This document shows, piece by piece, positions 1,081 through 44,682 of a DNA stretch of 64,000 nucleotides (its first letter is position 1; every line of letters starts with the position of its first letter). A model generated the notes under the pieces. It was given only the letters and a program-made list of their open reading frames with translations, was not told the origin of the DNA and ran no database searches. This stretch comes from Candidatus Moraniibacteriota bacterium (GTDB lineage Bacteria > Patescibacteriota > Minisyncoccia > Moranbacterales > JAPLXC01), in assembly GCA_026396275.1 (NCBI GenBank), contig JAPLXC010000007.1, positions 37,084 through 101,083 on the forward strand. Reading direction: 5' to 3'. A program made the translations under genes and the position numbers.

Positions 1081-1103
1081 GCTAATATGTTTTTTCTAGA
1101 AAA

Positions 1104-1325
1104 TTAAGATCTCGCGAAAAAAACAGTGGCCACTGCCATTGCCAGAAAAAGCACAGATAATACTACCGAGAATTGAAAGAGAAATTTTTCTATTCCCCGT
1201 TTTGTGTAATAGCCCCCGAAATCACCGCCAAATGCCGCGCTTAGCCCCGACCCGCGGTTTTGAAGCAGAATGGAAACCACAAGCATAATCGCTATAACAA
1301 TCTGCGCAATTGTGAGTATTTTCAT
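1104..1325 (-). CDS. secG: preprotein translocase subunit SecG
   Basis: 73 aa, two TM segments, LLQNRGSGLSAAFGG motif characteristic of SecG. Confidence 0.6.
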   Translation of the reverse strand: MKILTIAQIVIAIMLVVSILLQNRGSGLSAAFGGDFGGYYTKRGIEKFLFQFSVVLSVLFLAMAVATVFFARS

Positions 1326-1365
1326 ACAACTAATACCCTATCACAAGTGTGCTGGGAAATCAACC

Positions 1366-2040
1366 TCAAAAAATAATTATTGCTAATTCTCCTTTTATTT
1401 CCCCTTTTTTTTCGCTAAAATACCGCTGTACTTCCTCGATACTTCCCCGGACGATCTCTTCAAACATTTTCGTAAGTTCCCGGCCGACAATTACATTTTT
1501 CTTAGTTTCCATCCGGTTGAGAAGTTCAAGATTTTTGAGCAAGCGGTGAGGCGATTCATAGTATAGTACTGGATGGCGCAAAACGGAAATTTCCCGAAAA
1601 AATGTTTCTCTTCCCTTTTTGTGAGGAGGAAATCCCATAAACGCAAACCGCTGCATATCAATTCCTGCCACGCTTACCAAGGCAGTAAGAGCCGAGGGAC
1701 CCGGAATCGGAATGGATAAAAATCCATCTTTAACCAATTCTCCAACTAACTTATTTCCTGGATCAGAAATTCCGGGAGTGCCGGAGTCCGTTACTAGGGC
1801 AATATTCTTTCCCTGGGTCAGTAAGTCCTTGAGATAATTTTCCCGTTGGCGGGAACTGTGCTGATGATAGGATATCAAGGGTTTTTGTATGTTATAATGG
1901 CGGAGAAGCTTTTGGGTCACGCGCGTGTCCTCGCAGGCAATAAGATCAACATTCTTTAAAACTTCAAGAGCCCTTAAGGTTATATCTTTTAAATTCCCTA
2001 TCGGAGTGGCAATGACGTATAATGTTCCAAAATTGTTCAT
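1366..2040 (-). CDS. rsmI: 16S rRNA (cytidine1402-2'-O)-methyltransferase RsmI (tetrapyrrole methylase family)
   Basis: YVIATPIGNLKDITLRALEVL...LIACEDTR...TDSGTPGISDPG motifs. Confidence 0.85.
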   Translation of the reverse strand: MNNFGTLYVIATPIGNLKDITLRALEVLKNVDLIACEDTRVTQKLLRHYNIQKPLISYHQHSSRQRENYLKDLLTQGKNIALVTDSGTPGISDPGNKLVGELVKDGFLSIPIPGPSALTALVSVAGIDMQRFAFMGFPPHKKGRETFFREISVLRHPVLYYESPHRLLKNLELLNRMETKKNVIVGRELTKMFEEIVRGSIEEVQRYFSEKKGEIKGELAIIIF

Positions 2041-2127
2041 TAAATTATTAACGAGTTAATGTGTTAACGAGTTATTTTTATTAACCCGTTAATTCGTGAA
2101 CCCGTTAACTGGATAATTTTTTAATAT

Positions 2128-2583
2128 ATGCTTTTAGCTACTCACGCTCTTACCGGTGCGATTATCGGGAAAAACATAGCGAGCTCCTGGCTGGTAATTA
2201 TTTTTTCCCTGATACTGCATTACGTTCTGGATATTTTTCGCCACGGGGAATACTTGAACCGAAATTCCCGCTGGATCGAATTCTGGAAAGTGCTGGCCGA
2301 TCTGGCAGTAGGATCTTCAATTCTTGCGCTAGTAATTTATTTTTTAAATCCTCCGGCGGCAGTGACAAAAAATATGCTAATTGGCGCTCTTTTTTCAATG
2401 TTTCCCGACTTTTTCTCCCTTATGTATTTTAAGTTCAATGTCGGATTTCTCAAAAAACTATTTGATTTTCATGTCTGGATCCACCGCTACCCGCCGCTTT
2501 CTCCTGAGAGGGAATGGAATTTAAGAAACGCATTTAATGATATTATCGTTTCAATAACTGCTATTATACTTTTAATAGTTTAA
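2128..2583 (+). CDS. hypothetical membrane protein
   Basis: 151 aa, several hydrophobic helices; divergent from rsmI across a GTTAA-repeat region. Confidence 0.4.
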   Translation: MLLATHALTGAIIGKNIASSWLVIIFSLILHYVLDIFRHGEYLNRNSRWIEFWKVLADLAVGSSILALVIYFLNPPAAVTKNMLIGALFSMFPDFFSLMYFKFNVGFLKKLFDFHVWIHRYPPLSPEREWNLRNAFNDIIVSITAIILLIV

Positions 2584-2652
2584 TGCAAAGTGAAAATCTC
2601 AAATTGCTTTTTATATTGTCATTTTGATTTTTGATATTTGATTTTTGATTTT

Positions 2653-5502
2653 TTATAAATACTTCGCTGTCCAGCTTTTTTTGCATTTCTTTAATTTATC
2701 AGGCGTTCCTTCATAGACAATTTCTCCGCCTTTTTCTCCCCCGTCCGGCCCCAGTTCAATCACCCAATCGGCATTGCGGACAACGTCAAGATTGTGCTCC
2801 ACCACCAGAACCGTGTTGCCTCTTTCCACCAGCGCGTCCAAAACGCTAAGAAGGCGTTTAGTATCATCAAAGTGGAGTCCGACCGTGGGCTCATCCAGAA
2901 TATAAAGAGTTTTTCCGGTAGATTTTCTCGCCAGTTCGGCCGCCAGCTTGATCCGCTGCGCTTCCCCGCCGGAAAGATTGGTGGCGCTTTGGCCCAGCTT
3001 GAGATATCCCAGTCCCACTTTCTCCATTATCTCCAGCTTTTCGGCAATAAGCGGATAATCGCTGAAAAAGTTAAGGGCAAAACTTACATCCATATCCAAC
3101 ACTTCAGCAATATTGAACCCCCTGAACTCAACATCCAGGGTCTTTTTGCTGTACCGAGTGCCATCGCAGGCCTCGCACTTGATGTACATGTCCGGCAAAA
3201 GATACATTTCAATTTTATTCATTCCCTCTCCCTGGCAGACCTCGCAGCGCCCGCCTTTCATATTAAAACTGAACCGGCTGGCGGCGTAACCCCGAGAGCG
3301 AGCTTCTTCCGTTCCGGCAAAGAGGTCGCGAATTTGAGAAAACACACCGGTGTAGGTGGCGGCATTGGAGCGGGGAGTTCTTCCGATCGGGCTCTGATCA
3401 ACACTGATTACTTTATCAATGGCGCTTATTCCCTGTACGTCTTTATGCTTTCCTGGCTCATCTTTGGCCTTATAGAAATAACGGGCAAGAGCTTTAGCTA
3501 GAATATCTTGAACCAGGGTTGATTTTCCCGATCCCGAGACCCCGCAGATAACCACAAATTTTTCCAATGGAATTTTAACATCAATGTTTTTGAGATTGTG
3601 CTCGCTAGCCTTAATGACTTCAAGTGTTTTTTTGCTTCCTTTCCGATAATCTTCTTTTTCGCAGACCTTCTTTCTTCCGACCAAATAAGCAGCGGTAAGA
3701 GTTTTCGATTGGAGAAGTTTATCTAGTGTTCCCTCAAACACTACGGTCCCCCCATTTTCTCCTGCTCCCGGCCCCATATCAATAATCCAGTCGGCGGCGC
3801 GAATGATGTTTTCGTCATGTTCCACAATCAGCAAGGAATTGCCAGCGTCCCGCAGTGACTTCATAGTCGCCACCAATTTGTCGGTATCGCGGTTATGAAG
3901 TCCGATGGATGGCTCGTCTAAAATATAAGTAATTCCCATGAGACGAGAATTTATTTGCGCTGCGAGGCGAATTCTTTGGGCTTCTCCGCCGGAAATCGTC
4001 TGGGCGCTTCGCGCCAAATTCAGATACTCCAAACCGACATTTTCCAGCGACTCTAGTCGTCTTATCATTTCACGAACCAAGGGCTTGGCAATTTTTCTTT
4101 CCCGATTTTCAGCTTTCCACTGATTACTGTTTGCCAAAAAACGCTTAAGCCGCACCATGTCAAGATTTACTACTTCATCAATCGAACGTTCATCAATAAG
4201 AACAGAAAGATACACTTTTCTTAAGCGTTTTCCTTCGCAGATAGGGCACTGCTGGGAAACCATGTACTTTTCCATTTCGGCTTTCAGAAAATCAGATTTC
4301 GTTTCTTGGTATTTTCTCTCCAGGCCGGGAATAACTCCTTCAAATGGGATCAGAACTGAAGAAACTCCTCCTAAATCGTACTCCCTTCGTTCGGCAATCA
4401 GCTCATCCTTGTCTCCAAAAAGAATGATATCCAGATGCTTGGAAGAAAGCTTTTTCACAGGAACATTGACGGAAAAGCCATATATTTTCGCCAAGGATTT
4501 TAAAACGGAGAGATGATTCGTCTGGCTGTTCATTTTTCCTCCGGCTTTGCTCCAGGGCTGAATAGCTCCTTCGGAAAGTGACAGATTTTTATTGGGAATA
4601 ATTAGATCCGGGTTTATCTTGAGCACAAATCCCAATCCGGAACATTGCAGACAGGCCCCTTCCGGGTTGTTAAAAGAAAAGTGGCGAGGAGTGAGTTCCC
4701 GCAGCGCAGTGCCGCACTGCCGGCAAAGAAAGTCCTGATTGTAAGTTTTTTCTTTACTGTTATCAATTACAACAAGAGTTGATCCCTTTCCCAGTTTCAT
4801 AGCCGTTTCAATCGAATCCACGATTCGCTCCCGATCCGGATTTTTTCGGTCAAGGATAATTCTATCGACCACAATCTCGATATCAGCAGGAATTTTATCA
4901 CTGGCAATCAGCAAGGCCTCAGGTGCTCCCATCACTTTTTTGTTAAAGCGCACTCGGGCATAACCGGCTTGTTGAATACCGCGCAGTATCTCTTTGGAAT
5001 TTTTATTTTTGTCCAATGGTTTAGCTAAAATCATAATGTGGCTCCGGTGGGGCAGCGGCAGAATCTCGTCCAGAATTTCCTGATTGCTTTTTTTCTGCAT
5101 CAGCGTTCCGCACTCGGGGCAATGGGGTTTTCCGATTTTGGCAAAAAGAATTCGCAGATAATCGTAAATTTCCGTGAGCGTTCCCACAGTGGAGCGCGGG
5201 CTGCGGCTGATTGACCGCTGATCAATGGCAATGGTGGGGCTCAGGTTCTCGATCTTATCAACATCGGGCTTGACGGAGGCATCCAAAAAATTGCGCGCGT
5301 AAGAAGAAATCCCTTCCATATAGCGGCGATTGCCTTCGGTAAAAATTGTGTCGAAAGCCAAAGAGGATTTTCCCGAACCGGAAAGTCCTGTGATTATTAC
5401 CAGTTTGTCGCGGGGAATGTCGACATCAATATTCTTCAGGTTGTTCACCCGCGCACCCCGAACCAGAATTTTGTCCCTTTGGCTTGAACTTTTTTTTGCC
5501 AT
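2653..5502 (-). CDS. uvrA: excinuclease ABC subunit A
   Basis: 949 aa, two ABC ATPase modules ([26 protein letters not shown]), zinc-finger cysteines, LSGGE signature x2. Confidence 0.95.
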
Positions 5503-6036
5503 TTGAGAGGAAAGTACACCCCCACATCAATTCCAGGAAAACCCGAGATAATTTAAAGTCATAAGTCGAAGCCGCTTATCGGCTTTAGTAATCGATTACT
5601 AAAGGTCTTTATAAGAATTGGTGTGGAGGTAAATAAATCACGCTAATTGTAAATGGTAAAGGATTTTTAGGGATTTGTAAAGACCTGAATTCCGGACATA
5701 GACAAGTTACGTCCAAATAAATAATATTAACCCCGGAGCAAGCTCTGGACTTTATTTGCGCAGTTCCGCTGCAGCTTGAGAGAAGAAGAAAGCAATCGAG
5801 AGCGAATTAGATCAGATGAGACTCAAACTTCAGCAACTTAAAGTCATTTTTGACACGATTACAGTTCCAACTCAGCAATGAGCTACCCGTCCAGGCAGGA
5901 GTAATAAGTTCAAACTTATCTCCTGCTTTTTTATTTCTAAATCAGTTTGTAGTTTACTTTTCTAGCTATGGCTAGAAAAGTAAACTAATCGCGGATTGGA
6001 AGTTATTAATAAAATTAATTATGCTATAATTTCCTT

Positions 6037-6258
6037 ATGAGAACCAAAAAAATCAAAGCTCCTGCCCGCAATGTAACCCATAATAAAAACCAGCAAAAAC
6101 CATTAACTGAAATGGATACTGATGAAATTTTAGAAGCATACGGGCATAGCGTTGCAGGCGGGGAAAAACGCGAGATTAAAAAACGAAAGAAAATGATGGT
6201 TTCCGGCAAAAGCGTGTTTAAAATCAAGGAAATTATTGACAAAAAATCGAAGAACTGA
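6037..6258 (+). CDS. hypothetical lysine-rich small protein
   Basis: 73 aa, TATAAT box about 16 nt upstream; no recognisable family. Confidence 0.3.
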   Translation: MRTKKIKAPARNVTHNKNQQKPLTEMDTDEILEAYGHSVAGGEKREIKKRKKMMVSGKSVFKIKEIIDKKSKN

Positions 6259-6331
6259 TAAGCTTTTATTACAACTTAGAAAGTCCCGATTCGCTTCGCT
6301 CCGATGTTGCGTCGGAGATAAGGCGAAATAA

Positions 6332-6364
6332 TCCATCAAAAGGGCTTTCTTTGGTGGATATTTT
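6332..6364 (+). terminator. hairpin (10-bp stem, 1 mismatch) followed by T-rich tract downstream of 6037..6258
   Basis: atccatcaaaagggctttctttggtggat then attttaata. Confidence 0.4.
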
Positions 6365-6437
6365 AATAACAAAACTTGAAGCTTGAAACGTAAAAATAAA
6401 TTTGTTTCATGTTTTATGTTACATGTTACATGAACTA

Positions 6438-6884
6438 ATGCTCTACGAACTTTGTTACCTCGTCGGTGAATCCAATGAGCCCAAACTGGAAGAAATAAAA
6501 AAGGAAGTGGCAGCTATCGTCACCCAGACAGGAGGCATTTTTCAGGAACCCCAAATTATTGAAAAAAGAAAAATGTCTTATAAAATAAAAGGACAGTTTC
6601 GGGGAACATACGCTGCCCAGCGTTTTGAAATACCGGAAAAAGATTTTTCTGAACAAAAGCCCGGGGAGGCAAATGCTATCCAGGCCATAACCAAAAAGCT
6701 GAATCTTGACCAGAACATCCTTCGCTTTATTATCGTAAAAACCGATGATCTTCCTGAACTTAGGCCGAAGGAAATTGCTCCCAGAGAAAAAGTAGTCGCT
6801 GCACCGGTCAAAAGAAAAGATAAGGAGAAAACCGCGCCGGCTAAAAGCATTGACGAGAAATTAGAGGAAATTTTAAACATATAA
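6438..6884 (+). CDS. rpsF: 30S ribosomal protein S6
   Basis: MLYELCYLV...AAIVTQTGGIF...ILRFIIVKTDD matches bS6; ORF-track start at 6402 lies inside an upstream palindromic repeat, the third ATG (6438) fits the S6 N-terminus. Confidence 0.85.
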   Translation: MLYELCYLVGESNEPKLEEIKKEVAAIVTQTGGIFQEPQIIEKRKMSYKIKGQFRGTYAAQRFEIPEKDFSEQKPGEANAIQAITKKLNLDQNILRFIIVKTDDLPELRPKEIAPREKVVAAPVKRKDKEKTAPAKSIDEKLEEILNI

Positions 6885-6955
6885 TTCACAAAACATGAAA
6901 CATGAAACATGAAACAATTAATGTTACATGTTGTATGCTACATGTTATATGACGT

Positions 6956-7408
6956 ATGAACGTCAACAAAGCAATCTTAGTCGGCCGCTTAACCCGCGAT
7001 CCCGACATCCGCACCACTCAATCCGGACAAACCGTGGTCACGATAGGGCTGGCCACCAACACTTTCTGGACCGACAAAAGCGGCCAGAAACAGGAAAGGA
7101 CAGAATTTCACAATGTTGTTTTGTGGGGACGCCTCGCCGAAATTGCCGGCCAATATCTGACCAAAGGGCAGGAGGCCTATTTTGAAGGTCGTCTTCAAAC
7201 CAGAACCTACACCGGCAAAGACGGCGTGGAGCGAAGAGCAACTGAAATTATCGCCGAGAATATGCAGCTGGGCAGCCGTCCGCGAGGGGAAGGTGTGTCT
7301 CCGTCCTCTGCCGCTGCGGCGCAAAAAAAAGAACTGACTGAAGAAATCCCCACTATCAACCTTGACGAAGAGCAGGGAGAAGTGAAAATTGAGAATGTCC
7401 CGTTTTAA
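6956..7408 (+). CDS. ssb: single-stranded DNA-binding protein
   Basis: MNVNKAILVGRLTRDP...HNVVLWGRLAE OB-fold motifs and acidic C-terminal tail ending NLDEEQGEVKIENVPF. Confidence 0.9.
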   Translation: MNVNKAILVGRLTRDPDIRTTQSGQTVVTIGLATNTFWTDKSGQKQERTEFHNVVLWGRLAEIAGQYLTKGQEAYFEGRLQTRTYTGKDGVERRATEIIAENMQLGSRPRGEGVSPSSAAAAQKKELTEEIPTINLDEEQGEVKIENVPF

Positions 7409-16181: not shown

Positions 16182-16290
16182 TTTCTTGCGAACTTTATGA
16201 AATTTTAGGCATTTCTATCCTATGCTAAAAACCAACTGCGGTCAAAAGAAAAACGGGCAAGGAGTGTAATCCTGCCCGTCAAGGTGAGTG

Positions 16291-18841: not shown

Positions 18842-19423
18842 TTACCCCAAAACAACTTTCAACAGTTCCGGAAATTCTTCTGTTCCCATATCACCCAATG
18901 TATAATGCCCCTTACTCTTAAGCTCAATTATTTTGCCATCTAAAACCTTATGGTAAATTTGAAGGCTTTTTTTGCCATCCTCTTCCTCGTCATCAGCGGT
19001 AAACATGATAATCTCTCCAATCCTATCTTTAATTTTCTCGTCTATTGGATAGACATAGAAAGCTTCCCTAAATTTATCGCCCGCGTCAGGAATTTTCCAG
19101 GGAGCTACCAGTATTAATTTTCTTATTTTCTGTCTTGTTTCACCCAGCCAGCGCACCAAAAAAGCACATCCGCAACTATGTCCAATTAAAATCGTATTTT
19201 CCGTAACTTCATATTTTTCAAATTCTTTTTTGAATTTTTCATAATCCGGCGCCCAGGGTTCAGGCAAAAGCGGAGTTTCTGTCTTTATTCCTTTGGCAAT
19301 TAATTTTTCCTTAATCCACGGAATCCAATGTTTGTCATATGTCCGCGTCTGCGGATCCATTGCTTTCTCTTTGTCCGAGGGACACCCATGAATTATTATG
19401 CAATTTATTTGTGACTGATCCAT
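18842..19423 (-). CDS. alpha/beta hydrolase, YdeN/RBBP9-like serine hydrolase family
   Basis: IIIHGCPS ... LIGHSCGC nucleophile elbow, about 190 aa typical of the family. Confidence 0.6.
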   Translation of the reverse strand: MDQSQINCIIIHGCPSDKEKAMDPQTRTYDKHWIPWIKEKLIAKGIKTETPLLPEPWAPDYEKFKKEFEKYEVTENTILIGHSCGCAFLVRWLGETRQKIRKLILVAPWKIPDAGDKFREAFYVYPIDEKIKDRIGEIIMFTADDEEEDGKKSLQIYHKVLDGKIIELKSKGHYTLGDMGTEEFPELLKVVLG

Positions 19424-19506
19424 ATAATAAAGTTGAGGTAAGCTTGTCCCGTGATCCGCCGCGGATTTTACGGGGTAATTAATTACGTAATTCTGAATAT
19501 TACACT

Positions 19507-19534
19507 ATCCTTAAATTCTCAAGTATTTAAGGAT
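19507..19534. promoter_or_regulatory. 28-bp inverted repeat atccttaaattctcaagtatttaaggat (copy 1, downstream of ArsR gene / upstream side of the hydrolase gene)
   Basis: 10-N8-10 palindrome, exact second copy at 19843..19870. Confidence 0.6.
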
Positions 19535-19538
19535 GGTG

Positions 19539-19844
19539 TTATTCTGTCTGGAATGTTTTTAAGAATCGGACGAACATTTTACCATAAGGCGACAGGGCGT
19601 GCTCCACAAAATTGCCGCGATATTTTTTGTTAATAAGCCCCGCCTGATAAAGTCTTCTGGTATGCTCGCTGATTGTTTTCTCATTGGCTTTCAGTTTTTT
19701 AACTATATTATCAAGTGTAATGTCTTTTTGTTCATCTATTAGTAGCAATATATCAATGCGGTGATGGTTGGCCATTCCTTTCAAGTGCCGCTCCATTTGT
19801 TTTGCCGTTTTGATTTTCCTCATATTAACATTATACACAACCAT
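19539..19844 (-). CDS. ArsR/SmtB family transcriptional regulator
   Basis: RIDILLLIDEQKDITLDNIVKKLKANEKTISEHTRRLYQAGLINKK winged-helix signature. Confidence 0.7.
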   Translation of the reverse strand: MVVYNVNMRKIKTAKQMERHLKGMANHHRIDILLLIDEQKDITLDNIVKKLKANEKTISEHTRRLYQAGLINKKYRGNFVEHALSPYGKMFVRFLKTFQTE

Positions 19845-19870
19845 CCTTAAATTCTCAAGTATTTAAGGAT
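19843..19870. promoter_or_regulatory. 28-bp inverted repeat (copy 2) overlapping ArsR start region: candidate autoregulatory operator
   Basis: Identical to 19507..19534. Confidence 0.6.
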
Positions 19871-20062
19871 AGTTTAGTAGTTAGGTGTTTCTTGAAAACT
19901 CCTATTCAACCCAATCCCAATGCCCAAAGGCAAAATCAAAACTCCGGCAAGGATGATTATAGATTTTTTGGAGATGAACATGAACGAAATTTATTTATTA
20001 TATTTGTGCCAGCGACTTGTCCCGAGTTTATTGAGGGAAGCTGGCGCGCCGCTTTCATATTT

Positions 20063-21389: not shown

Positions 21390-21704
21390 TATCTCCTCCT
21401 TTACAATCCCTCAATGTTTATGGTTTATTGTTAATAAAAAGAACTGGTGCTTAATCTTAGCGCAGTTTACCATTTTGTCAAATAAAAACCAGCCGCTTGG
21501 GGCTGATGGGAAGGTAAGCCTGCCCCGAAGTGAGCCCTGCTCTACTTCTGGGGTTTACCCCGTACCGCCTTACTGGTGCGTGGGTAATTTTTATCCGCCT
21601 TTGGCGGAAATTACGTAATTTTCCAGCCGCCGAATTTCGTGCCAGCAAAGCTGCCGCGCCGCCCAAGATTAATGCAATTTCTCCTAATTTTCTTGTTGGC
21701 CAAG

Positions 21705-22556
21705 TCATAGATTATTTTGCCTTACAATTTCATCGATTCTAGCCTTACTTTTTTTTCTTGTTTCATTTATTTCTTCTTCAAGCTTTTTCATTTCAATAGA
21801 TATTTCATTAGTTAAATTATGAGGATATTTAGCCGCTGCTATCAAATGAACGATTTTAGTAAAAATCGGCTTTTCTTTCATTAATATCCTAGTTTTTACA
21901 ACAATCTTTTTATTTTCACTTTCAAGATCTTCCAAGAAAACTTTTAGCTCTGCTACTTTTTTTATTAAAATCTCAATGTTTATTTTATAAGTTTCAAAAT
22001 CAATATGTTTTTGAATAAATGCTTTTTTTATTTCGCTATAAAATCTATTCGTAGAATTAATCGATCCATTCATTTTATCTACGCTTGTTTCAAAAGAAAA
22101 AACTTCGTTGACTAAATCTAAATTCATTAGATCTACGGATATTTCTTCGTCTAAAGCAAATTCATGTAGAACATTAAAATAAACAAATGGCCTGTTATAT
22201 TCTATTGCGTCTTGGGCAATATTAATGAAATCATCAATTATAAAGATGTTGTCGGAGATGACATTCAAATATCGATTGCAAATTCTTTCAATCTTTACAA
22301 GGGCATTGTAATGCTTAACTTGTCTATCATAAATTCTGGTGAGTGCATCTGCAAGTCTTATAAACAAGAAAGCGAAAAACGCCCCCATGAAAGCACTTAT
22401 TGCGCTGTTGATATATCTGATGTCATTAGAAATGAAGATTTTATTAAAAATAAAAAATCCAAAAACAAATATAAATGAACAAATTAAAGTTAAAAGCAAA
22501 AGTGGATATGTTTTTTTAATACATTCTCTTAATTTTTTTGTTGGCCAGTTATTCAT
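21705..22556 (-). CDS. hypothetical membrane protein with cytoplasmic coiled-coil domain
   Basis: Two N-terminal TM helices then long helical/coiled-coil region; very AT-rich; start overlaps stop of RusA-like gene. Confidence 0.5.
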   Translation of the reverse strand: MNNWPTKKLRECIKKTYPLLLLTLICSFIFVFGFFIFNKIFISNDIRYINSAISAFMGAFFAFLFIRLADALTRIYDRQVKHYNALVKIERICNRYLNVISDNIFIIDDFINIAQDAIEYNRPFVYFNVLHEFALDEEISVDLMNLDLVNEVFSFETSVDKMNGSINSTNRFYSEIKKAFIQKHIDFETYKINIEILIKKVAELKVFLEDLESENKKIVVKTRILMKEKPIFTKIVHLIAAAKYPHNLTNEISIEMKKLEEEINETRKKSKARIDEIVRQNNL

Positions 22557-22557
22557 T

Positions 22558-23022
22558 TTATATCAACCTACTAATCTGCGAGGATATTCTTTTAATGATC
22601 TCTTCGTCCAGTATTTTAACAGATATACGAAAAAAACTTTCTTGTGAATTTATTATAAATGCTTTGTGAGTCCAGAGCATTTTAACTTGGGAGTCATCAA
22701 AATAAACAACCCCTTTAAGTGCATCTAGTATACATTTTGCGCGATTATCTAAATCACATTTTTTATATTCAGTACCTGAATTTATACCATGCACTATTGA
22801 GACAAGGACATTTTTATCTGTTGGAAAAATATTTACATTTTTTAATTCTTTTTTAAGATCTTCTTTTAATTCATTCTCGAATTTATGGGTACTAGCTTTT
22901 TCAATCACAATATTCTTTTCTATTTCACCGTCATACTTATAAGCTATGCTTTTAGATGGTACCAAAGTGTTACCTTGAAGATATACTATTTCTGGATTGA
23001 TAATTTCTTTAAGCTTTCTCAT
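22558..23022 (-). CDS. RusA-family crossover junction endodeoxyribonuclease (Holliday junction resolvase)
   Basis: KKCDLDNRAKCILDALKGVVYFDDSQV matches the RusA catalytic core (D-L-D-N ... LDAL ... DD); start set at internal ATG that overlaps upstream stop (aaaTGAtATG). Confidence 0.7.
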   Translation of the reverse strand: MRKLKEIINPEIVYLQGNTLVPSKSIAYKYDGEIEKNIVIEKASTHKFENELKEDLKKELKNVNIFPTDKNVLVSIVHGINSGTEYKKCDLDNRAKCILDALKGVVYFDDSQVKMLWTHKAFIINSQESFFRISVKILDEEIIKRISSQISRLI

Positions 23023-23023
23023 A

Positions 23024-23191
23024 TCATTTTTTCTTTTTCGCCAAAAATTCAACTCTCACGGATTTTGGAATAAATTTTTTTGCTCTAAAACTTACCTCCT
23101 CGCCCTTTCTAGTATAAAAAATAACTTTTACAGGTTTAGAAACTATCTTAGTCGCTTTAAACGAAATATGTTGTCTTGCTTGTTTTGGCAT
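23024..23191 (-). CDS. small basic protein (55 aa) translationally coupled to RusA-like gene
   Basis: MPKQARQHISFKATKIVSKPVKVIFYTRKGEEVSFRAKKF...; stop 1 nt before RusA ATG. Confidence 0.35.
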   Translation of the reverse strand: MPKQARQHISFKATKIVSKPVKVIFYTRKGEEVSFRAKKFIPKSVRVEFLAKKKK

Positions 23192-23349
23192 AAATTTTAT
23201 CTTAATCAAAAATAAATACTATTAATCTCCTTCATAATTTTATCCGTCTCAACCAGCACGCACTCGGCTTAAATTTTTTCTAGATTTCTCCTAAAGTTGT
23301 TTTTTTATTTCTTGTTCATAGAAAATTATATCTTCTTCATTTTCAAGAG

Positions 23350-23514
23350 CCTTTTTCAATTTCTTGAGATTCCTCGCTAAATTCTCCTACATCCTCACCA
23401 AATTCAACTTTTTGGCCATCCTCAATAAAACCATCATTTTTATCTTTCTCTTCTTGTTTTTCAGAATTCTCATCTTCAAGATCATTTTCTTGATCAATTC
23501 TCATATATTTCACA
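23350..23514 (-). CDS. small highly acidic protein (54 aa), unannotated
   Basis: MRIDQENDLEDENSEKQEEKDKNDGFIEDGQKVEFGEDVGEFSEESQEIEKGS; 15 nt downstream of the preceding membrane gene; below ORF-track cutoff. Confidence 0.3.
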
Positions 23515-23528
23515 AAGATATTATTAGC

Positions 23529-24002
23529 TTAGATTGATAAAACTAACAGTACGACACCTGCAATTAGAAAAATAATTGAAAATTTAAACCACAGAGCAAG
23601 TTCTGAAGATATTTTTTCATTATTAGTGATATCTGTTTCTAATTTTTTATTGAATTTCATTACTAATTTTTCATGAGGCCACTCGAAGCTTTTTTCTATT
23701 AGTTCTTTTAATTTTGGTCCTTGACTATATTTTTTTGACCAAATTGAACAAACAGCAAACAACAAAGAGACAGCAACTAGAAAAAAAGATTTTTTTTGAA
23801 AGCCACTAAGACATGAACTCTTACTGATTAGAAATCCCAATAAAGCAACATCTGCCACAATAATCCAATTAAGCTTATTATTAAGATAATCTATGGCTTT
23901 TTGTTGGCTATTGGAAAATTCTACAATTTTTTCATGAACAAAAAGTGTCTTGTGTAGATCGTCTTTGCTATTATTCTCTTTTTCTTCATTGTTATCCACC
24001 AT
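23529..24002 (-). CDS. hypothetical membrane protein
   Basis: 157 aa, hydrophilic N-terminus then 3-4 TM helices; AT-rich. Confidence 0.5.
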   Translation of the reverse strand: MVDNNEEKENNSKDDLHKTLFVHEKIVEFSNSQQKAIDYLNNKLNWIIVADVALLGFLISKSSCLSGFQKKSFFLVAVSLLFAVCSIWSKKYSQGPKLKELIEKSFEWPHEKLVMKFNKKLETDITNNEKISSELALWFKFSIIFLIAGVVLLVLSI

Positions 24003-24341
24003 ATTCGTTATTCTTTAAATTTAATCTATTGGCAGTCAGCGCTTATATTTCAAAATTTTAATAACTTTTTGAATCGTCTTTTCCAGATTTTTTTGAATTT
24101 CATGCTCCCGCCGCTGAATTTTCCGCCTGATATACTAATTACAGGCAGGCTGTAAATTTTGCGATAGCAATAAATACAGCCTGGTTGGGATTTATTGAGA
24201 GTGGAATACTGTACAAACCCCGGCGAGGATGATTGAAAGTTTTTTAAAATAAACGCGGGCGAAATTTGGGTTTTTTGGATTATGTAACATATGTAATTTT
24301 TCCATCAAAGTTGTATTTTTAATTTCTCTCTCTCATAATTT

Positions 24342-25622
24342 TTAATAGTCAATGTAAAACTTAGTTATTCCGAACCCCTTGTCGTCATCAAACATACCAA
24401 ACTCCCATGGATGTGATGGGTATACCTGTATATTGTTATCTTTTCGTTCAATAAATTTAAAATCACGGGGTGACTGCATGAGAAAATCTTTCTCTTCGCC
24501 GCCTGATGTAAATTGCCTTTCATAAATCGAAAGGGCATTGCACAACATTGCAAAAAGAAATGAACAGAAAATATTACCTCTCGTAATAACTCCCCTCTCT
24601 TTAAAATCATTAAAATATTTCCTGTCTGACTTATTATCAATTTTGAAATACTTTGCTGCCTCTATGCACAATGTAACTCGGAAATCCGGCTCAAGCCCAT
24701 CATCTACCTGATTTTTGTATATAAGATCGGCTTTCCTGATTATTAACTTCAAAAGTCGCATATTTGTCTCCACTCTTTCTACAAACAATCCTTCAAGAAA
24801 ACTAATTATTTGACTCTTTCTGTTTGCACCGGTCCAAACCAATTTATTATTATCCTGTCTATTGAATGAGCCTGTGAATAAATTATTACGAAAAATTTCA
24901 TCAACGAATTTATCAAGCTTTACCTTTTCAGGTTGAAAAAAGTCGAAATAATCAATGCACTTTAAATACGACTCTAAATTTTTATAGTAGTTCTCATTGG
25001 CTATAGGAACAATAACCACAAACTTTTTCTTAAAGCTGTAGGAGTGCAAAAATTGTTTCAATGTTTCCAGAAAAAACACACCCGCATCTCCTGACCTATC
25101 TATATCTTCAACAATAATAAACAGATTGCTATCAGCTTTTTCTACCTGCTCTTTTAAAATTTTCTGTATCTCATCAACTCTTCTTGCTGGAGACGTTTCG
25201 AAAAAATGATTTATGCCTTCAAGAACTGCAAATCCTGGTATTCTAGAAATAGTTTTAATTAATGTTTTTTTATCCTCATTTTGTGTTCCCTGAATTTTTT
25301 TCTCTGTTTCTGCAAAATCTTTCGGACTTATTTCCTTTGAAAAATCTAAAATAAACCCCTCCCACAAATCTTTCCTGTCTGGATATTTCCAAGCATCAAA
25401 CTCTATCCACTTTTCACCGCTTCCTCGCTCGTTCATAACTCGATTTATCATAGTGCTTTTCCCGCTTCCAAAGGGCCCAACCAAAGCAATGATTGAGGAA
25501 GTGGGAAGGGAATCTATTTTCTTAGCAAAACTGGCAACAATGTCAGAAAAACCTAGTAGATCATTGACCTTGCTATGTTCTTTTAATAATTCGTGATTTT
25601 TTACGAAACCTTGATTAGCCAT
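24342..25622 (-). CDS. KAP family P-loop NTPase
   Basis: LVGPFGSGKSTMINRV Walker A, WKYP, LFIIVEDIDRSGD Walker B-like; 426 aa; candidate sigma70 promoter TTGCAA-17-TAATAT about 35 nt upstream. Confidence 0.7.
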   Translation of the reverse strand: MANQGFVKNHELLKEHSKVNDLLGFSDIVASFAKKIDSLPTSSIIALVGPFGSGKSTMINRVMNERGSGEKWIEFDAWKYPDRKDLWEGFILDFSKEISPKDFAETEKKIQGTQNEDKKTLIKTISRIPGFAVLEGINHFFETSPARRVDEIQKILKEQVEKADSNLFIIVEDIDRSGDAGVFFLETLKQFLHSYSFKKKFVVIVPIANENYYKNLESYLKCIDYFDFFQPEKVKLDKFVDEIFRNNLFTGSFNRQDNNKLVWTGANRKSQIISFLEGLFVERVETNMRLLKLIIRKADLIYKNQVDDGLEPDFRVTLCIEAAKYFKIDNKSDRKYFNDFKERGVITRGNIFCSFLFAMLCNALSIYERQFTSGGEEKDFLMQSPRDFKFIERKDNNIQVYPSHPWEFGMFDDDKGFGITKFYIDY

Positions 25623-25789: not shown

Positions 25790-26107
25790 TTACTTAATCC
25801 CGCATGGGGGATTCTTCTTATTTCGGATGTCTTTTTCAATCTTCAATCGATCTTCTAGAGAATACTTATCGGTTGGCATCCATTTAACTGCGACAGAATA
25901 ACCACCGTGTTTATCCCAACATGGTTTTCTTTCATGTGTCAGCAACCTCGTTCCCGTTTCACCGGATTGTCCAACATCAATAACTGAGTATATCACATTG
26001 AGGATTACGTAAATTGCAGCTCTATCAATCTTAATCTTACCAATTTTATAAGGTCCATCGAAATTATAACCTGCGATTGTAACCATTGGACTTAATTTTC
26101 TAGCCAA
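25790..26107 (-). CDS. hypothetical protein, possible GIY-YIG-like nuclease fold
   Basis: AAIYVILNVIYSVIDVGQSGETGTRLLTHE resembles GIY...YIG...R..H pattern; weak. Confidence 0.35.
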   Translation of the reverse strand: MARKLSPMVTIAGYNFDGPYKIGKIKIDRAAIYVILNVIYSVIDVGQSGETGTRLLTHERKPCWDKHGGYSVAVKWMPTDKYSLEDRLKIEKDIRNKKNPPCGIK

Positions 26108-26238: not shown

Positions 26239-27771
26239 ATGATCTCAAAAAGATTATCAAAAAAACAAAAGGAAGTTCTTGATTTTATTACCGCTTTTCA
26301 ACAAAAGCGCGAGTATTCCCCTTCCCTAGAAGAAATCGCTAAACATTTCAATATTGCAATTCCCACTGCTCACCAACATGTGCAGGTATTAAAAAGAAAA
26401 GGATTTATAAGCGCAAGAAAGGGGGAAAAACGATCTATCTCAGTAAAAGAAAAAGCTTCAATGGTACAAGTCCCGCTGCTTGGTGTTATTACTGCTGGCC
26501 AGCCGATTGAAGCGATAGAAAATAAAGAGACAATTGCTGTACCACAAAATAAACTCTCCCATTCCGGAGAATTTTATGCTTTACGAGTTTTGGGCAATAG
26601 CATGATTGATGAAAATATAAAAGACGGCGATATTGTTTTAGTAAAAAAACAAGAAGTTGCAGAAAATGGACAAAAAGTCGTTGCTTTAATTGATAACTAT
26701 GAAGCAACACTGAAAAAATTTTATAAGGAAAGAGGACACATTCGGTTGCAACCAGCTAATAAGAACATTGAACCAATAATTATAAAAAGGGATAGAGAAC
26801 TAACTATTCAGGGCATTGTAATAGATGTAATTAAAAATGAAGAGGAATTGCAAGCGGAAGAAATTTTAACTGCAGGAAAGGTTAAAAGACACTTAAAACT
26901 TCCTCTTAATAAAATTATTTTAGGAGACGCTGTTAGAGAATTAAGAAAATTACCGGATGAAAGTTGCGATATTATTATTATCGACCCGCCTTATAATATC
27001 GGAAAGGATTTCGGAAATAATATTGATAAAAGAGAATTAAGCGAATATATTGAATGGAGCAAAAAATGGATTAATGAATCTATAAGAGTAATGAAATCAA
27101 CTGGTACAATGTTTATTTACGGATTTAGTGAAATTTTAGCGTACTTGTCAGTTGAAATTCCTATAAATAAGCGATGGCTCATTTGGCACTATACTAACAA
27201 AAATGTTGCATCTTTAAATTTTTGGCAAAGAAGCCACGAAGCAATTATTTGCGCCTGGAAAGAAAAACCAATTTTCAACCGGGACGAAGTGAGAGAGCCA
27301 TATACTGAAGGATTTCTAAACGGCGCCGCTGGAAAAGTACGTAAAGGAACTATGGGAAGATTCAGCCGAGGTGGACAAGAAACTGTTTATAATGCACACG
27401 AAGGTGGCGCGTTACCAAGAGACGTTATAAAAATACCCGCTCTAGCAGGAGGAGCGGGAATGGTTGAAAGGTGGTTTTTATGCAAAACATGCAATGACGT
27501 TTTTGAGCCACGTGAATTAAAAAAACACCAAAATCATGAGATTATAAAACATCCGACACAAAAACCCTTGGAACTTTCAAAAAAACTTATAAAATCAGCC
27601 TCCTCAAGCAAAGAAGGCGTTATTTTGGTACCATTCGTCGGCAGCGGTTCAGAATGCGTCGCAGCCAAAGAACTTGGTAAAAATTATCTTGGTTTTGAAT
27701 TAAACCCAGATTATGTAAAGTTGGCCGAAGAGTGGTTAAAATCTACAAAGACTGCTCCTAAGTTATTTTAA
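26239..27771 (+). CDS. LexA-like repressor (wHTH + S24 peptidase) fused to N6/N4 DNA methyltransferase (beta class, DPPY then FxGxG)
   Basis: N-term: KQKEVLDFI...VPLLGVITAGQP (Ala-Gly site), GNSM catalytic Ser, VVALIDNYEATLKKF catalytic Lys; C-term: IIIDPPYNIGKDF (motif IV) and VPFVGSGSECVAAKELGKNYLGFEL (motif I). Confidence 0.85.
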   Translation: MISKRLSKKQKEVLDFITAFQQKREYSPSLEEIAKHFNIAIPTAHQHVQVLKRKGFISARKGEKRSISVKEKASMVQVPLLGVITAGQPIEAIENKETIAVPQNKLSHSGEFYALRVLGNSMIDENIKDGDIVLVKKQEVAENGQKVVALIDNYEATLKKFYKERGHIRLQPANKNIEPIIIKRDRELTIQGIVIDVIKNEEELQAEEILTAGKVKRHLKLPLNKIILGDAVRELRKLPDESCDIIIIDPPYNIGKDFGNNIDKRELSEYIEWSKKWINESIRVMKSTGTMFIYGFSEILAYLSVEIPINKRWLIWHYTNKNVASLNFWQRSHEAIICAWKEKPIFNRDEVREPYTEGFLNGAAGKVRKGTMGRFSRGGQETVYNAHEGGALPRDVIKIPALAGGAGMVERWFLCKTCNDVFEPRELKKHQNHEIIKHPTQKPLELSKKLIKSASSSKEGVILVPFVGSGSECVAAKELGKNYLGFELNPDYVKLAEEWLKSTKTAPKLF

Positions 27772-28470
27772 TTTTGAATCAATTTCTTCTTTCTTTTGTT
27801 CAAAAATGTAGGGCTCAAAAATAACAAAGCCATTCGAGAATACACGAAGCATTTTTGTGTCTAGATAGTTTTTCTTAAAAGTAAGATATGATTTTAAAAA
27901 TCCCGTCCCTCTTTTCTTTTTAGGATGCAAAATGGTTTTAAGATCAGGTACTTCATAGCGGATTGGAATTGTTATGCCCGGAATCGGCTCTTTCGGCTTA
28001 TGACTACGCCCCATTACACCACTATTTGATTTCTTCTTTACATCATAATTAATAACTAATTCCCTATATTGTACCTGAATGTCAGCCCCTTTATGATCAA
28101 GTTCCTCTGACATATTGACCGTATTTTTTCCAAATACTGACTCGGCAACATATCCTGCATGCATTTGAGTAATAAGCCCTGCCCATGTCCTATATATACG
28201 CGCCTCGATTCCTTTCTTAAAACAACTAGGACACATCCCAATTTTCTTTCGAAACTCGCTGAGTTTTTTTCTATTTTCCCTTCTATAAATATCATAGAAG
28301 GCGTTAAAATCAACAAAGTTCTTTTCATCCCAGTAAATTCGATATAACAGCTTAATAGCTTGAATATTCTTTGGCAGATTCATTTCCACTATTTTAATAG
28401 AACTATACTTTTCTCTGTAAGCACTTAGGTTAACTGTTTTCAAAAAATCACTAAATTTTTGTAGATACAT
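27763..28470 (-). CDS. putative restriction endonuclease partner (PD-(D/E)xK-like), convergent and overlapping with methyltransferase gene
   Basis: GADIQVQYRELVINYDVKKK fits D-x(n)-D-x-K; convergent 9-nt overlap with MTase 3' end as in many type II RM pairs; assignment is inferential. Confidence 0.4.
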   Translation of the reverse strand: MYLQKFSDFLKTVNLSAYREKYSSIKIVEMNLPKNIQAIKLLYRIYWDEKNFVDFNAFYDIYRRENRKKLSEFRKKIGMCPSCFKKGIEARIYRTWAGLITQMHAGYVAESVFGKNTVNMSEELDHKGADIQVQYRELVINYDVKKKSNSGVMGRSHKPKEPIPGITIPIRYEVPDLKTILHPKKKRGTGFLKSYLTFKKNYLDTKMLRVFSNGFVIFEPYIFEQKKEEIDSKLK

Positions 28471-28514: not shown

Positions 28515-29108
28515 TTACAAATTTTTGATTTCCTCTACGATTTCCGGGAAGTGTTCTTGGTTGAAATGCTGGCGGTCTTCAAAAATATGCGCTTTAACAC
28601 TTGGTAAATCTTTCTTATATCTTTCAACTTCATTAAAAGGCACAATTGGATCATCCTTGCTTTGATACAAATGAATTATTGGGCATTGCTTTTCAACTCC
28701 TTCGAGCGATTTTTTAAAAACAAAATCACTAATCTCATGGGTTTCTGAATGTGGCGGAGCTACCAAAAAAAGAGCTTTTATTTTTTTAGGAAATTCGTTT
28801 TCAGATAAATATTTAACCAGAAAGATGCCTCCTTGCGAATGTCCGATTAAAATCGGTTCACTTTCCATAAATGGAAACATTCTTTTAAACCATATTTTCC
28901 ATTCCTCATACCTGGCATTATTTGAATTGGGCATACGGGGCGCAAGCACTTGGAATTCTCCTCCCAATTCCGATTGCAGGTGAATTTTCCAATCTTTTTT
29001 GGGCAGAAATGATTCAATCGTTACTTCCTGATTTTTAAGATCATCCAAAAATTTTTTGTACGAATCAAACGAACTTCCGCCATGTATAATAATAACTTGT
29101 TGTTTCAT
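28515..29108 (-). CDS. alpha/beta hydrolase, YdeN/RBBP9-like (second, divergent paralog)
   Basis: VIIIHGGSS ... LIGHSQGG. Confidence 0.6.
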   Translation of the reverse strand: MKQQVIIIHGGSSFDSYKKFLDDLKNQEVTIESFLPKKDWKIHLQSELGGEFQVLAPRMPNSNNARYEEWKIWFKRMFPFMESEPILIGHSQGGIFLVKYLSENEFPKKIKALFLVAPPHSETHEISDFVFKKSLEGVEKQCPIIHLYQSKDDPIVPFNEVERYKKDLPSVKAHIFEDRQHFNQEHFPEIVEEIKNL

Positions 29109-29273
29109 ACTGTAAATTTTTTACTTTCTCTAATCCCATCCTTCGCCATAAAGCTTCCACCGACGCCAAGGCTTTGGCGGACAAGTCGGAAGGACATGCC
29201 TAATTATTTACTTCTATAATCTCTAATCACCCCGTAAAATCCGCGGCGGATAACGGGGCAAGCCAACCCTCCC

Positions 29274-32016: not shown

Positions 32017-32052
32017 ATCCTACGCCAAAAAGGCCTGGAAATCAAATAAAAA
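32017..32052 (-). promoter_or_regulatory. 36-nt exact repeat containing sigma70-like promoter on minus strand (TTGATT-17-TAGGAT), copy 1
   Basis: atcctacgccaaaaaggcctggaaatcaaataaaaa; identical copy at 32536..32571. Confidence 0.5.
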
Positions 32053-32535: not shown

Positions 32536-32571
32536 ATCCTACGCCAAAAAGGCCTGGAAATCAAATAAAAA
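32536..32571 (-). promoter_or_regulatory. 36-nt exact repeat / promoter copy 2
   Basis: Identical to 32017..32052. Confidence 0.5.
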
Positions 32572-43606: not shown

Positions 43607-43623
43607 AAAATATCTTCAGGATG

Positions 43624-43695
43624 AGCGAGTGATGGGAGTCGAACCCACGTCTTCAGCTTGGAAAGCTGACATAATAGCCGTTATACTACACTCGC
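43624..43695 (-). tRNA. tRNA-Gly (anticodon UCC)
   Basis: 7-bp acceptor GCGAGTG/CACTCGC, anticodon stem TCAGC/GCTGA with loop TTTCCAA, T-arm GTGGGTTCGACTCCCAT. Confidence 0.85.
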
Positions 43696-44282: not shown

Positions 44283-44681
44283 GGGGTTGTCTAGCTTCGA
44301 CATTTTGCACTTTAAAAAATTTGCAAACCGATTATGACAGTCATATCGTTAAACTGCCTGTCAAAATTATAAGTGCAAACTTATACTCAAAAGTAAAGGC
44401 CAGCATCGCGCAAGCGTTTGCTCCGGCTTTTGCTACCGCTTTGGCTTAATTTAAGCTTTAGCCATCGGACTATTGACTCCTTATAAATAGCAACCGGTGC
44501 CAACCATAAGGATAGCCCGCCTGATATTTTCTAAGTTAAGCGGGCAAAATTAAATTAGAAATAGATTAAAAAGATTTTGCTTGTTTATTACTTTTTAGTC
44601 AAAATAAATAAACCGGCTAAGTTTGTAGAAAATTTTTTAAAAGCAACAATGGACGCGAGTGCAATTCTCGCCAACTCCACC
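44283..44681 (+). ncRNA. ssrA: putative tmRNA (SsrA), ~399 nt, tag ORF ...AQAFAPAFATALA*
   Basis: 5' GGGGTTGtctagCTTCGAC resembles tmRNA 5' acceptor/D-loop; 3' GGACGCGAGtgcaattCTCGCcaactccACC = T-arm + complementary acceptor strand (one G-U) + ACC; in-frame gcg caa gcg ttt gct ccg gct ttt gct acc gct ttg gct taa at 44408..44449; adjacent to smpB. Confidence 0.65.
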
Positions 44682-44682
44682 T

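Follow-up and report, generated by a model that had tools for sequence, protein, structure and literature searches.

An AT-rich gene string in a Candidatus Moranbacteria genome as a probable mosaic of accessory units from restriction-modification operons

Defence genes embedded in type I restriction-modification (R-M) systems are documented (10.1101/2024.01.29.577857; PMC11411939; PMC12707154), the precedents being PrrC in EcoprrI, which is the paradigm, TgvAB in V. cholerae VPI-2 and the rlo genes of Campylobacter (PMC12707154; PMC11411939). Such embedding is known in R-M, BREX and Hma operons alike, and the route by which the genes enter is left unexplained by Payne et al. (10.1101/2024.01.29.577857), the text of whose preprint contains no mention of hsdS, recombination or integrons and uses 'repeat' and 'duplicat' once each, in unrelated senses. 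The 64,000-nucleotide (nt) stretch analysed here (the window, on contig JAPLXC010000007.1) comes from the metagenome-assembled genome of an uncultured member of Candidatus Moranbacteria, within the Candidate Phyla Radiation (CPR; Patescibacteria). Its minus strand carries an AT-rich string of genes that encode, from high to low coordinates, a KAP-family NTPase, a 157-residue membrane protein, an acidic polypeptide, a basic protein, a RusA-family endonuclease and a 283-residue membrane protein, every one of these open reading frames (ORFs) being present (Table 1). The string contains three units with separate histories, each of which recurs in or beside R-M operons, and the seams lie at hsdS starts. 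The block is probably a mosaic of accessory units, three in all and independent of one another, that normally reside within or directly behind R-M operons and that have been stranded here without the R-M genes, with a separate KAP NTPase alongside.

In this mosaic, unit U1 (24002-23343) would be a membrane protein that ends in an acidic repeat tail and is interrupted by one nonsense codon; U2 (23259-22558) would be a translationally coupled basic protein and RusA-family nuclease, copied along with the final codons of a Type ISP R-M gene; and U3 (22556-21705) would be a protein with two transmembrane (TM) helices and a four-helix bundle, whose own start and following 17-codon stub appear to copy the first ~10 codons of hsdS. 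Like the described R-M-embedded genes, relatives of U1 and U3 occupy the interval from hsdM to hsdS on the same strand, near HEPN_AbiV, DUF6602, PIN_12, NYN and RloB genes, and both the 283-residue family (loci L002, L030, L034 and L085) and the 157-residue family (L083 and L084) are found embedded in type I operons. They resemble in this the second-line or 'guardian' genes carried in R-M operons (PMC12707154; PMC11411939; 10.1101/2024.01.29.577857). The window is unlike those systems in that its families are unannotated, its R-M genes are gone but for the 17-codon hsdS stub, and its cassettes have copies of the hsdS start at their boundaries. Embedding in type I R-M operons was known already, as were RusA, KAP NTPases and 2TM effectors as kinds. 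What is new is these particular families, which lie outside PADLOC 2.0 and, except for RusA and KAP, outside Pfam; the strict pairing of a basic protein with RusA outside phages; and the hsdS-start repeat before embedded genes, which was not found in literature searches.

The three units and the settings of their relatives

The 283-residue protein of U3 has no match in Pfam, PHROG, PADLOC or NCBIfam, and no consistent Pfam family emerged over 36 members of its family. This family is large (817 clusters at 50% identity in a profile search, 305 at E<=1e-30), and the members listed are 194-315 residues long and have no fused domains. An AlphaFold2 (AF2) model of the window protein, with a mean predicted local distance difference test score (pLDDT) of 85.5, has two N-terminal TM helices that lead into a long four-helix bundle, and the motif F.GAFFAFLF in the second TM helix is invariant. 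Type I R-M operons house the closest relatives, between hsdM and hsdS, in the following gene orders, where numbers are product lengths in residues and the relative stands in brackets: HsdM-210-195-HEPN_AbiV-DUF6602-[283]-HsdS-HsdR, followed by a 99-residue ORF and then GmrSD, in L030; HsdM-177-[282]-HsdS-NYN-HsdR in L034; HsdM'-310-209-[281]-158-178-HsdS in L085, whose genes carry no Pfam annotation; and HsdM-214-110-[252]-HsdS-HsdR in L002, from Saccharibacteria. In L033 the gene follows closely on HsdM-S-R and is itself followed by HEPN, NYN and patatin genes, and in L086, which has the closest relative of all (61% identity), it adjoins a DndB gene. Among the neighbours within two genes on either side at 29 species-representative loci, the commonest Pfam families are N6_Mtase and Eco57I (4 each), followed by resolvase (3) and by rve, ResIII, MmeI_Mtase and HsdM_N (2 each). 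One unstudied candidate to be flagged is this large, Pfam-less membrane protein family, which is enriched near R-M genes.

The 157-residue protein of U1, with hydrophobic TM-like segments at residues 46-66, 70-91 and 133-157, has only two homologues among 5.8 billion proteins. Both of them lie inside type I R-M operons: HsdM-[223]-205-PIN_12-HsdS-AAA_15/21-RloB-HsdR in L083, and [156]-53-83-178-HsdS in L084, where the homologue is upstream of HsdS. The acidic ORF is in frame with the 157-residue ORF, and between them stand a TAA at 23529-23531 and five codons. Over 57 aligned residues it shares 52.6% identity with residues 157-212 of the 223-residue protein of L083 (P0083), a fused homologue of U1, and it is 47% identical to the separate 53-residue ORF of L084. 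Given the in-frame TAA and the fused 223-residue homologue, the two ORFs are therefore one unit that is split in the window. The first-pass annotation had listed a small, very acidic protein; the acidity is real, but what it took for a separate protein is homologous to the tail of a longer one.

Among described effectors the nearest to the 157-residue family are the SLATT, PycTM and CBASS 2TM proteins, with which it shares small size and a TM hairpin. All three members match PycTM weakly (E 5.4e-4 to 1.9e-3, possibly driven by the TM segments), and two of the three match the CBASS '2TM effector' model. The window protein is unlike SLATT and PycTM proteins in scoring well under threshold for Pfam SLATT_4 (12.8 bits, cut-off 27), in its third TM segment and in its acidic repeat tail. 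Neither the window nor L083 or L084 contains a cyclase, SMODS or SLOG partner. The 2TM effectors of Pycsar and CBASS are thought to kill via membrane disruption. By guilt of embedding, each of the three units may belong to the R-M-embedded kind of conflict or anti-phage genes that work on their own; U1 and U3 would then be membrane-acting abortive-infection effectors, possibly restrained by the R-M complex or sensing its failure.

The nuclease of U2 matches Pfam PF05866 at 41.2 bits (cut-off 22.8, E 3e-10) and several RusA-like resolvase families in PHROG, the best at 8.1e-10. Its AF2 model (pLDDT 89.4) retrieves E. coli RusA (2h8e/1q8r/2h8c) as the top 7 Foldseek matches in the PDB (E 1.6e-6), with probability 1.00 and TM(target) of 0.69-0.77, and has extra N-terminal beta-hairpins and a C-terminal helix compared with the E. 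coli enzyme. The motif DLDN...DD.Q is invariant in 20 relatives, in which D90, D92, N93 and D110 are fixed; the catalytic acidic residues of E. coli RusA are D70, D72 and D91. Judged by sequence, the catalytic motifs of the window enzyme are intact. Alignment failure had been named in advance as what would undo the RusA-like assignment, which survives the tests of Pfam, fold and motif. Like the E. coli DLP12 and lambdoid RusA in Pfam match, fold and invariant motif, the protein is nevertheless only ~16% identical to E. coli RusA, and the profile of its subfamily does not reach that enzyme, nor does it find any other match in the PDB at E<=0.01. Translation most likely begins at the ATG at 23022, not at the TTG at 23052. 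The subfamily comprises 24 clusters among 5.8 billion proteins, all 24 with PF05866, and its catalytic residues are under purifying selection (mean column identity 57%).

The basic protein lies one nucleotide from the RusA ATG, and in all ten of the other distinct loci that have a full-length member of the subfamily a copy of it stands directly 5' of RusA (52-80% identity across these loci). It has no match in Pfam, PHROGs, PADLOC or NCBIfam, and its profile gives chance-level matches only (E>1) against the PDB. Unlike lambdoid RusA, the window subfamily always follows this 55-residue partner; it is found beside R-M or defence genes and not in phages. One of the copies is in L036, where positions 2560-3275 align over 717 bp with 23259-22545 of the window; identity is 84% overall and nearly complete in a central stretch, which suggests recent transfer or conversion. 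The homology begins within the last ~17 codons of an 870-residue ORF of L036 that matches Type_ISP_C at 3.7e-81, as well as Eco57I/N6_Mtase; the window therefore retains the stub of such a gene, VLVETDKIMKEINSIYF*. In L036 the pair follows the Type ISP enzyme gene by 16 nt, and in L044 it follows a type III Res gene by 15 nt and is succeeded by a zeta-toxin-like kinase and then a Shedu SduA_C protein. In neither does the pair lie between core R-M genes, which it adjoins in both. Elsewhere it is beside a methyltransferase fragment and DUF6996/6997 (L037), or beside RadC and PhdYeFM/ParE (L038). The L044 segment (427-7025) is itself a compact defence island, made up of a helix-turn-helix gene, type III Mod, a 180-residue membrane protein, type III Res, the pair, the kinase and SduA_C.

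What the pair does is a matter on which these settings bear in different directions. In the mosaic reading U2 would be a structure-selective nuclease acting on branched DNA, with a pI-11 partner that binds DNA or controls the nuclease; from the available comparisons, an anti-phage role is possible, and we hold it with some reserve. The intact catalytic residues, the purifying selection and the strict pairing would also suit a CPR recombination or repair function, a resolvase with a small DNA-binding cofactor whose presence in the block is incidental and not for defence. That explanation draws further on loci near housekeeping-type genes (UvrC, PheRS, gyrB, MsrA and PolA-like) and on the adjacency to ATP-dependent R-M enzymes of types I, ISP and III, and in a variant of it the pair might rescue forks or breaks made by translocating R-M enzymes. 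As a replacement for defence it seems improbable, since its distribution is very patchy, its position varies by locus, its GC content is foreign, the L036 copy points to recent transfer or conversion, and in L044 the pair sits between Shedu, zeta-toxin and R-M genes; a repair role tied specifically to translocating restriction enzymes is doubtful, but worth stating. A second unstudied candidate to be flagged is this RusA subfamily, with its obligate 55-residue partner and its place behind ATP-dependent restriction enzymes, a setting outside phages that is unusual for a Holliday-junction resolvase.

The first-pass annotation had offered two readings of the whole string, and neither of them holds. 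In one, the five genes below the KAP gene form a single, compact, membrane-associated abortive-infection nuclease system, with sensing or execution assigned to the membrane proteins and DNA cleavage to RusA. The single strand, the single AT-rich block, the three tight junctions and the defence-island setting speak for it. The gene-neighbourhood check, however, finds no co-conservation: none of the ten other distinct loci of the RusA pair carries a homologue of the 283-residue, 157-residue, acidic or KAP protein, and none of the 34 other distinct loci of the 283-residue family (29 species representatives and 5 metagenomic loci) carries RusA or the basic protein, the locus contexts being mostly from short metagenomic contigs. 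Among the loci examined, the juxtaposition of the 283-residue gene, the RusA pair and U1 is unique to the window. It is this lack of co-conservation that defeats the single-system reading; the parts, moreover, are kept apart by leftovers of other genes, namely a Type ISP stub, a further gene remnant and hsdS-start cores, and one part has a nonsense codon. It is largely refuted, and we regard it as very improbable. It is important to emphasize, for the annotation of similar loci, that a neat, same-strand, AT-rich string of genes may be an accident of cassette shuffling and not a system.

In the other reading, the block is a decayed fragment of a lambdoid-type prophage that has retained RusA. 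RusA is typically phage-borne, the PHROG match is of the RusA-like kind, and the GC content is foreign. The absence of capsid, terminase and lysis genes nearby, already remarked in the first-pass annotation, is borne out in the ORFs scanned at 16.3-33.2 kb, none of which belongs to a family of phage structural, packaging, integrase or lysis proteins. RusA is flanked by remnants of R-M genes, not by phage genes, and the phage collections hold no relatives: IMG/VR has no full-length relative of the RusA subfamily, its matches covering the catalytic core only; tblastn of the RusA, basic and 283-residue proteins against 50,697 GenBank phages returned nothing, and INPHARED contains no relatives; and the 283-residue model has no Foldseek match at E<=1e-3 among the BFVD viral structures. 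A tblastn search of 72,556 plasmids with the RusA and 283-residue proteins likewise returned nothing. A prophage origin is thus highly improbable.

Table 1. Features of the AT-rich block and of the adjoining KAP gene, in window coordinates
Feature	Position	Strand	Basis
17-codon hsdS stub ('MTWPTRKLGEIALILGG'), right edge of the AT-rich block	21658..21708	-	ATG overlaps the stop of the 283-residue gene
283-residue protein of a large unannotated family (U3)	21705..22556	-	2 TM helices and four-helix bundle
RusA-family endonuclease, 154 residues (U2)	22558..23022	-	Pfam, PHROG, fold, motif
Basic protein, 55 residues, isoelectric point (pI) 10.97, internal two-fold repeat (U2)	23024..23191	-	RusA partner
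3'-end stub of a Type ISP R-M gene ('VLVETDKIMKEINSIYF*'), left edge of U2	23206..23259	-	Homology to L036
Possible degenerate third core copy, tentative	23284..23304	-	17/21 identity to the copy at 21677-21697
Acidic ORF, pI 4.05, detached C-terminal tail of U1	23343..23513	-	Tandem GFSE.SQE[IV]E[KF]G motif
157-residue membrane protein, N-terminal part of U1	23529..24002	-	TM scan, homologues
Short gene remnant ('REHEIQKNLEKTIQKVIKILKYKR*'), within the 340-nt gap that precedes the 157-residue gene	24036..24110	-	Common to L036
KAP-family P-loop NTPase, 426 residues, separate from the cassette string	24342..25622	-	Pfam, Walker A

Copies of the hsdS start at the seams

The hsdS stub at the end of the string, which was absent from the first-pass list, shares its ATGA overlap and its N-terminus with the intact HsdS of L034 (MTNWPTKKLGEI) and of L085, and beyond it the GC content rises from 0.24 to 0.46. 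A tblastn search of the window with 14 Hsd proteins recovered this stub (21708-21658) and no hsdM, hsdR or other hsdS; the window therefore holds a remnant or a transplanted fragment and not a type I operon. The 283-residue gene, which starts MNNWPTKKL, and the stub open with the same 23-bp core of the hsdS start, TGGCCAACAAAAAAATTAGGAGA, of which the window contains two copies at <=1 mismatch (one at 21680-21702) where 0.01 would be expected. The homology between the window and L036 stops precisely at ATGRATAAYTGG, where the core opens with its first four codons, and beyond this point the two loci diverge. With its seams at R-M gene stubs and at hsdS-start cores, the block is therefore a patchwork.

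Starts of the same type recur before embedded genes in other loci: MTDWPTKKF in the 195-residue protein and MTNWPTKKLGE in the DUF6602 protein of L030, and MSYPTKKLKE in the 178-residue protein of L085. At least four unrelated protein families (DUF6602, the 195-residue, the 178-residue and the 283-residue families) share this M..WPTKKL-type start, and core copies precede embedded genes at five loci, whose 283-family proteins are 52-61% identical to that of the window. L030 has five cores: each of its four embedded genes is preceded by one, that of HEPN_AbiV being reduced to a non-coding remnant, and the fifth is at hsdS. L086 (1434-2340) has a degenerate core at the start of its 283-family gene and, right after the stop codon, a truncated core ORF (MPWPTKNNPKLI*) and a terminator; its cores lie outside any type I operon. 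Synonymous sites of the core are kept beyond local codon bias, the threonine codon being ACA in 11 of 11 cases (33% in the background) and the leucine codon TTA in 9 of 9 (36%). The core has no exact match in IMG/VR. Of all the loci, L030 (3300-7100 of JGI Ga0190360_1000096) offers the clearest example of a cassette array, with GmrSD downstream of HsdR.

A repeated hsdS start might serve captured genes in two ways, by providing a start codon and translational coupling, and by providing short homology for the gain, loss and exchange of cassettes. That the core is used in recombination seems to us an even question. A broader proposal, which can be put forward only tentatively, is that in one lineage of CPR bacteria type I R-M operons act as platforms for cassette capture through recombination in the first ~10 codons of hsdS, ~23-30-bp coding repeats flanking the cassettes in integron-like fashion without an integrase; the window would then be a piece broken off such an array, with two defence candidates, the 283-residue family and a basic/RusA pair that would target branched phage DNA. 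If so, the hsdS-start copies would constitute a concrete mechanism of embedding, one that is testable by comparative genomics and population metagenomics. The comparison with integron arrays holds in that the cassettes are tandem, mostly single-gene and on one strand, each after one short repeat, with a common upstream platform. It is an analogy only, in that there is no IntI and there are no attC hairpins, the repeat is the coding start of hsdS and supplies the start codon, and any exchange would need short homology. No recombinase was found by Pfam among the called genes of L030, L033 and L034, or in the window block. A part for RusA in cassette exchange at the GGCC of the core was considered and set aside as speculation, the core being absent around other RusA pairs.

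The want of a recombinase in the arrays of L030, L033 and L034 is equally a point in favour of another view, according to which the hsdS-like starts reflect one or a few old fusions, or duplications of the hsdS 5' end that were kept for translation initiation, and the cassettes move by illegitimate recombination. The core is A-rich, as is favoured downstream of start codons; the WPTK start occurs in one clade only of the 283-residue family; and the core is absent from the type I arrays L083 and L002. We nonetheless think this view rather unlikely, with at least four unrelated families carrying the start, a degenerate non-coding copy preceding a gene that has its own start (AbiV in L030), a homology breakpoint that falls exactly within the core, an L086 cassette with cores on both sides and away from hsdS, and synonymous sites kept beyond codon bias.

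Several points weigh against the mosaic reading itself, or restrict its reach. About three quarters of the species-representative loci of the 283-residue family have no R-M gene within two genes, and its association with R-M is therefore an enrichment and not a rule. The WPTK N-terminus is confined to 12 of 188 representatives, and a single old fusion could by itself explain such a start in the 283-residue gene; translation initiation, not recombination, could be why the A-rich core is kept. The core copies are not independent samples, several of the contigs come from one sequencing project, and the possible third copy in the window is weak and is missed by the nhmmer profile of the core. In L039 and L046 the RusA pair lies among housekeeping-looking genes. 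As to origin, the decay of a type I operon on the spot and the arrival of a cassette that brought a piece of hsdS along are both compatible with the window. Finally, none of these families is in PADLOC 2.0, and the functions of the units are inferred.

Composition of the block, the KAP NTPase and the flanking genes

The first-pass annotation called the block AT-rich and compositionally foreign, and the values per gene bear this out: GC is 0.270 for the 283-residue gene, 0.288 for RusA, 0.310 for the basic protein, 0.322 for the acidic ORF, 0.285 for the 157-residue gene and 0.343 for KAP, compared with 0.426 for the adjacent 165-residue gene, 0.415 for the whole window and 47-49% for the rpoB/rpoC-sized ORFs at 33.4-40.5 kb that serve as the native baseline. 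The region from 21.7 to 24.0 kb is 27-32% GC. In 200-nt bins its edge at ~21.66-21.70 kb is abrupt (0.46 outside, 0.24 inside), and towards KAP and beyond GC increases gradually. Tight packing on one strand had also been claimed; the single strand is correct, but tight junctions do not extend throughout, there being three only (basic/RusA, RusA/283 and 283/hsdS stub), and gaps of 133 nt and 340 nt elsewhere in the block both contain gene remnants. The remnant in the longer gap is common to L036 (window 24109-24072 and L036 3292-3329, 89% over 38 nt); it may resemble the C-terminal tail of Vsr/DUF559-type endonucleases, which is a weak assignment. Rfam gave nothing relevant in the window or in a permissive run on 21.3-24.4 kb, and the GC-rich stretch at 21470-21680 folds no better than chance (z = -1.38). 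In a scan for promoters and terminators, promoter-like sites were no commoner than in shuffled sequence, and one terminator-like hairpin was found, at 21507-21488.

The neighbouring KAP P-loop NTPase of the first-pass annotation is borne out by its match to PF07693 (KAP_NTPase; 40.2 bits, cut-off 20, E 3.3e-10) and has the Walker A motif GPFGSGKST. Its likeness to PifA, QatA and PDC-S20 lies in the KAP P-loop domain and is N-terminal: the PADLOC matches are no more than partial (PifA 2.3e-10, with some quarter of the profile covered; PDC-S20 3e-7; QatA 1.9e-6), and residues 18-176 align with positions 14-193 of the 720 of the PifA profile. The window protein is unlike PifA and QatA in aligning at the P-loop alone (~160 of 720 PifA positions), in having no QatBCD partner genes, none being found in the PADLOC scan, and in having no TM insertion. 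The KAP family as first described typically has TM helices inserted within the NTPase domain, and a 19-residue Kyte-Doolittle scan of the window protein detects no TM-like segment.

The flanks (16.3-33.2 kb) contain Fic, two Ser_hydrolase paralogues, DUF2127, SET, an ArsR/MarR regulator, a fusion of LexA with a methyltransferase, and a TaqI-like restriction endonuclease. With the TaqI-like enzyme and the methyltransferase, the KAP NTPase and the R-M contexts of the homologues, the defence-island setting proposed earlier is right, in distinction to the single-system and prophage readings that accompanied it. A GIY-YIG-like gene had been proposed at 25790-26107 (-); its sole support is a PHROG endonuclease match at E=0.025, and Pfam, NCBIfam and PADLOC have no match to it. 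The product is a basic protein of 105 residues, and a strong hairpin follows the stop codon. The LexA fusion, at 26239-27771 (+), joins a full-length LexA (TIGR00498, 174.8 bits, cut-off 110.95; domains LexA_DNA_bind and Peptidase_S24) to an N4/N6 DNA methyltransferase, and its gene is convergent with that of the TaqI-like restriction endonuclease at 27763-28470 (-), with a 9-nt overlap. Through such an SOS-cleavable DNA-binding domain, carried by the R-M methylase, the control of restriction could be coupled to DNA damage.

Several repeats occur outside the block. A pair of 45-nt inverted repeats at 19437-19481 and 29224-29268 was considered as island borders and rejected, each copy being palindromic and lying upstream of a paralogous hydrolase gene; the copies of this GC-rich element are 89% complementary, adjoin the Ser_hydrolase genes at 18842-19423 and 28515-29108, and look like a shared regulatory hairpin or one of the repetitive extragenic palindrome (REP) type. 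A palindrome, ATCCTTAAAT...TATTTAAGGAT, stands on both sides of the ArsR/MarR-like gene (19504-19537 and 19840-19873), and the same palindrome ends contig L036 (~3373-3401), the carrier of the 84%-identical basic-RusA copy; its presence in both may reflect either related organisms or a mobile element. A perfect, intergenic 36-nt direct repeat is found at 32017-32052 and 32536-32571, 519 nt apart, and a third copy, 64% identical, lies at 16217-16252. Further along the window are a tRNA-Gly(TCC) at 43623-43695 (-) and a tmRNA at 44283-44682 (+), the latter scoring 146.5 bits.

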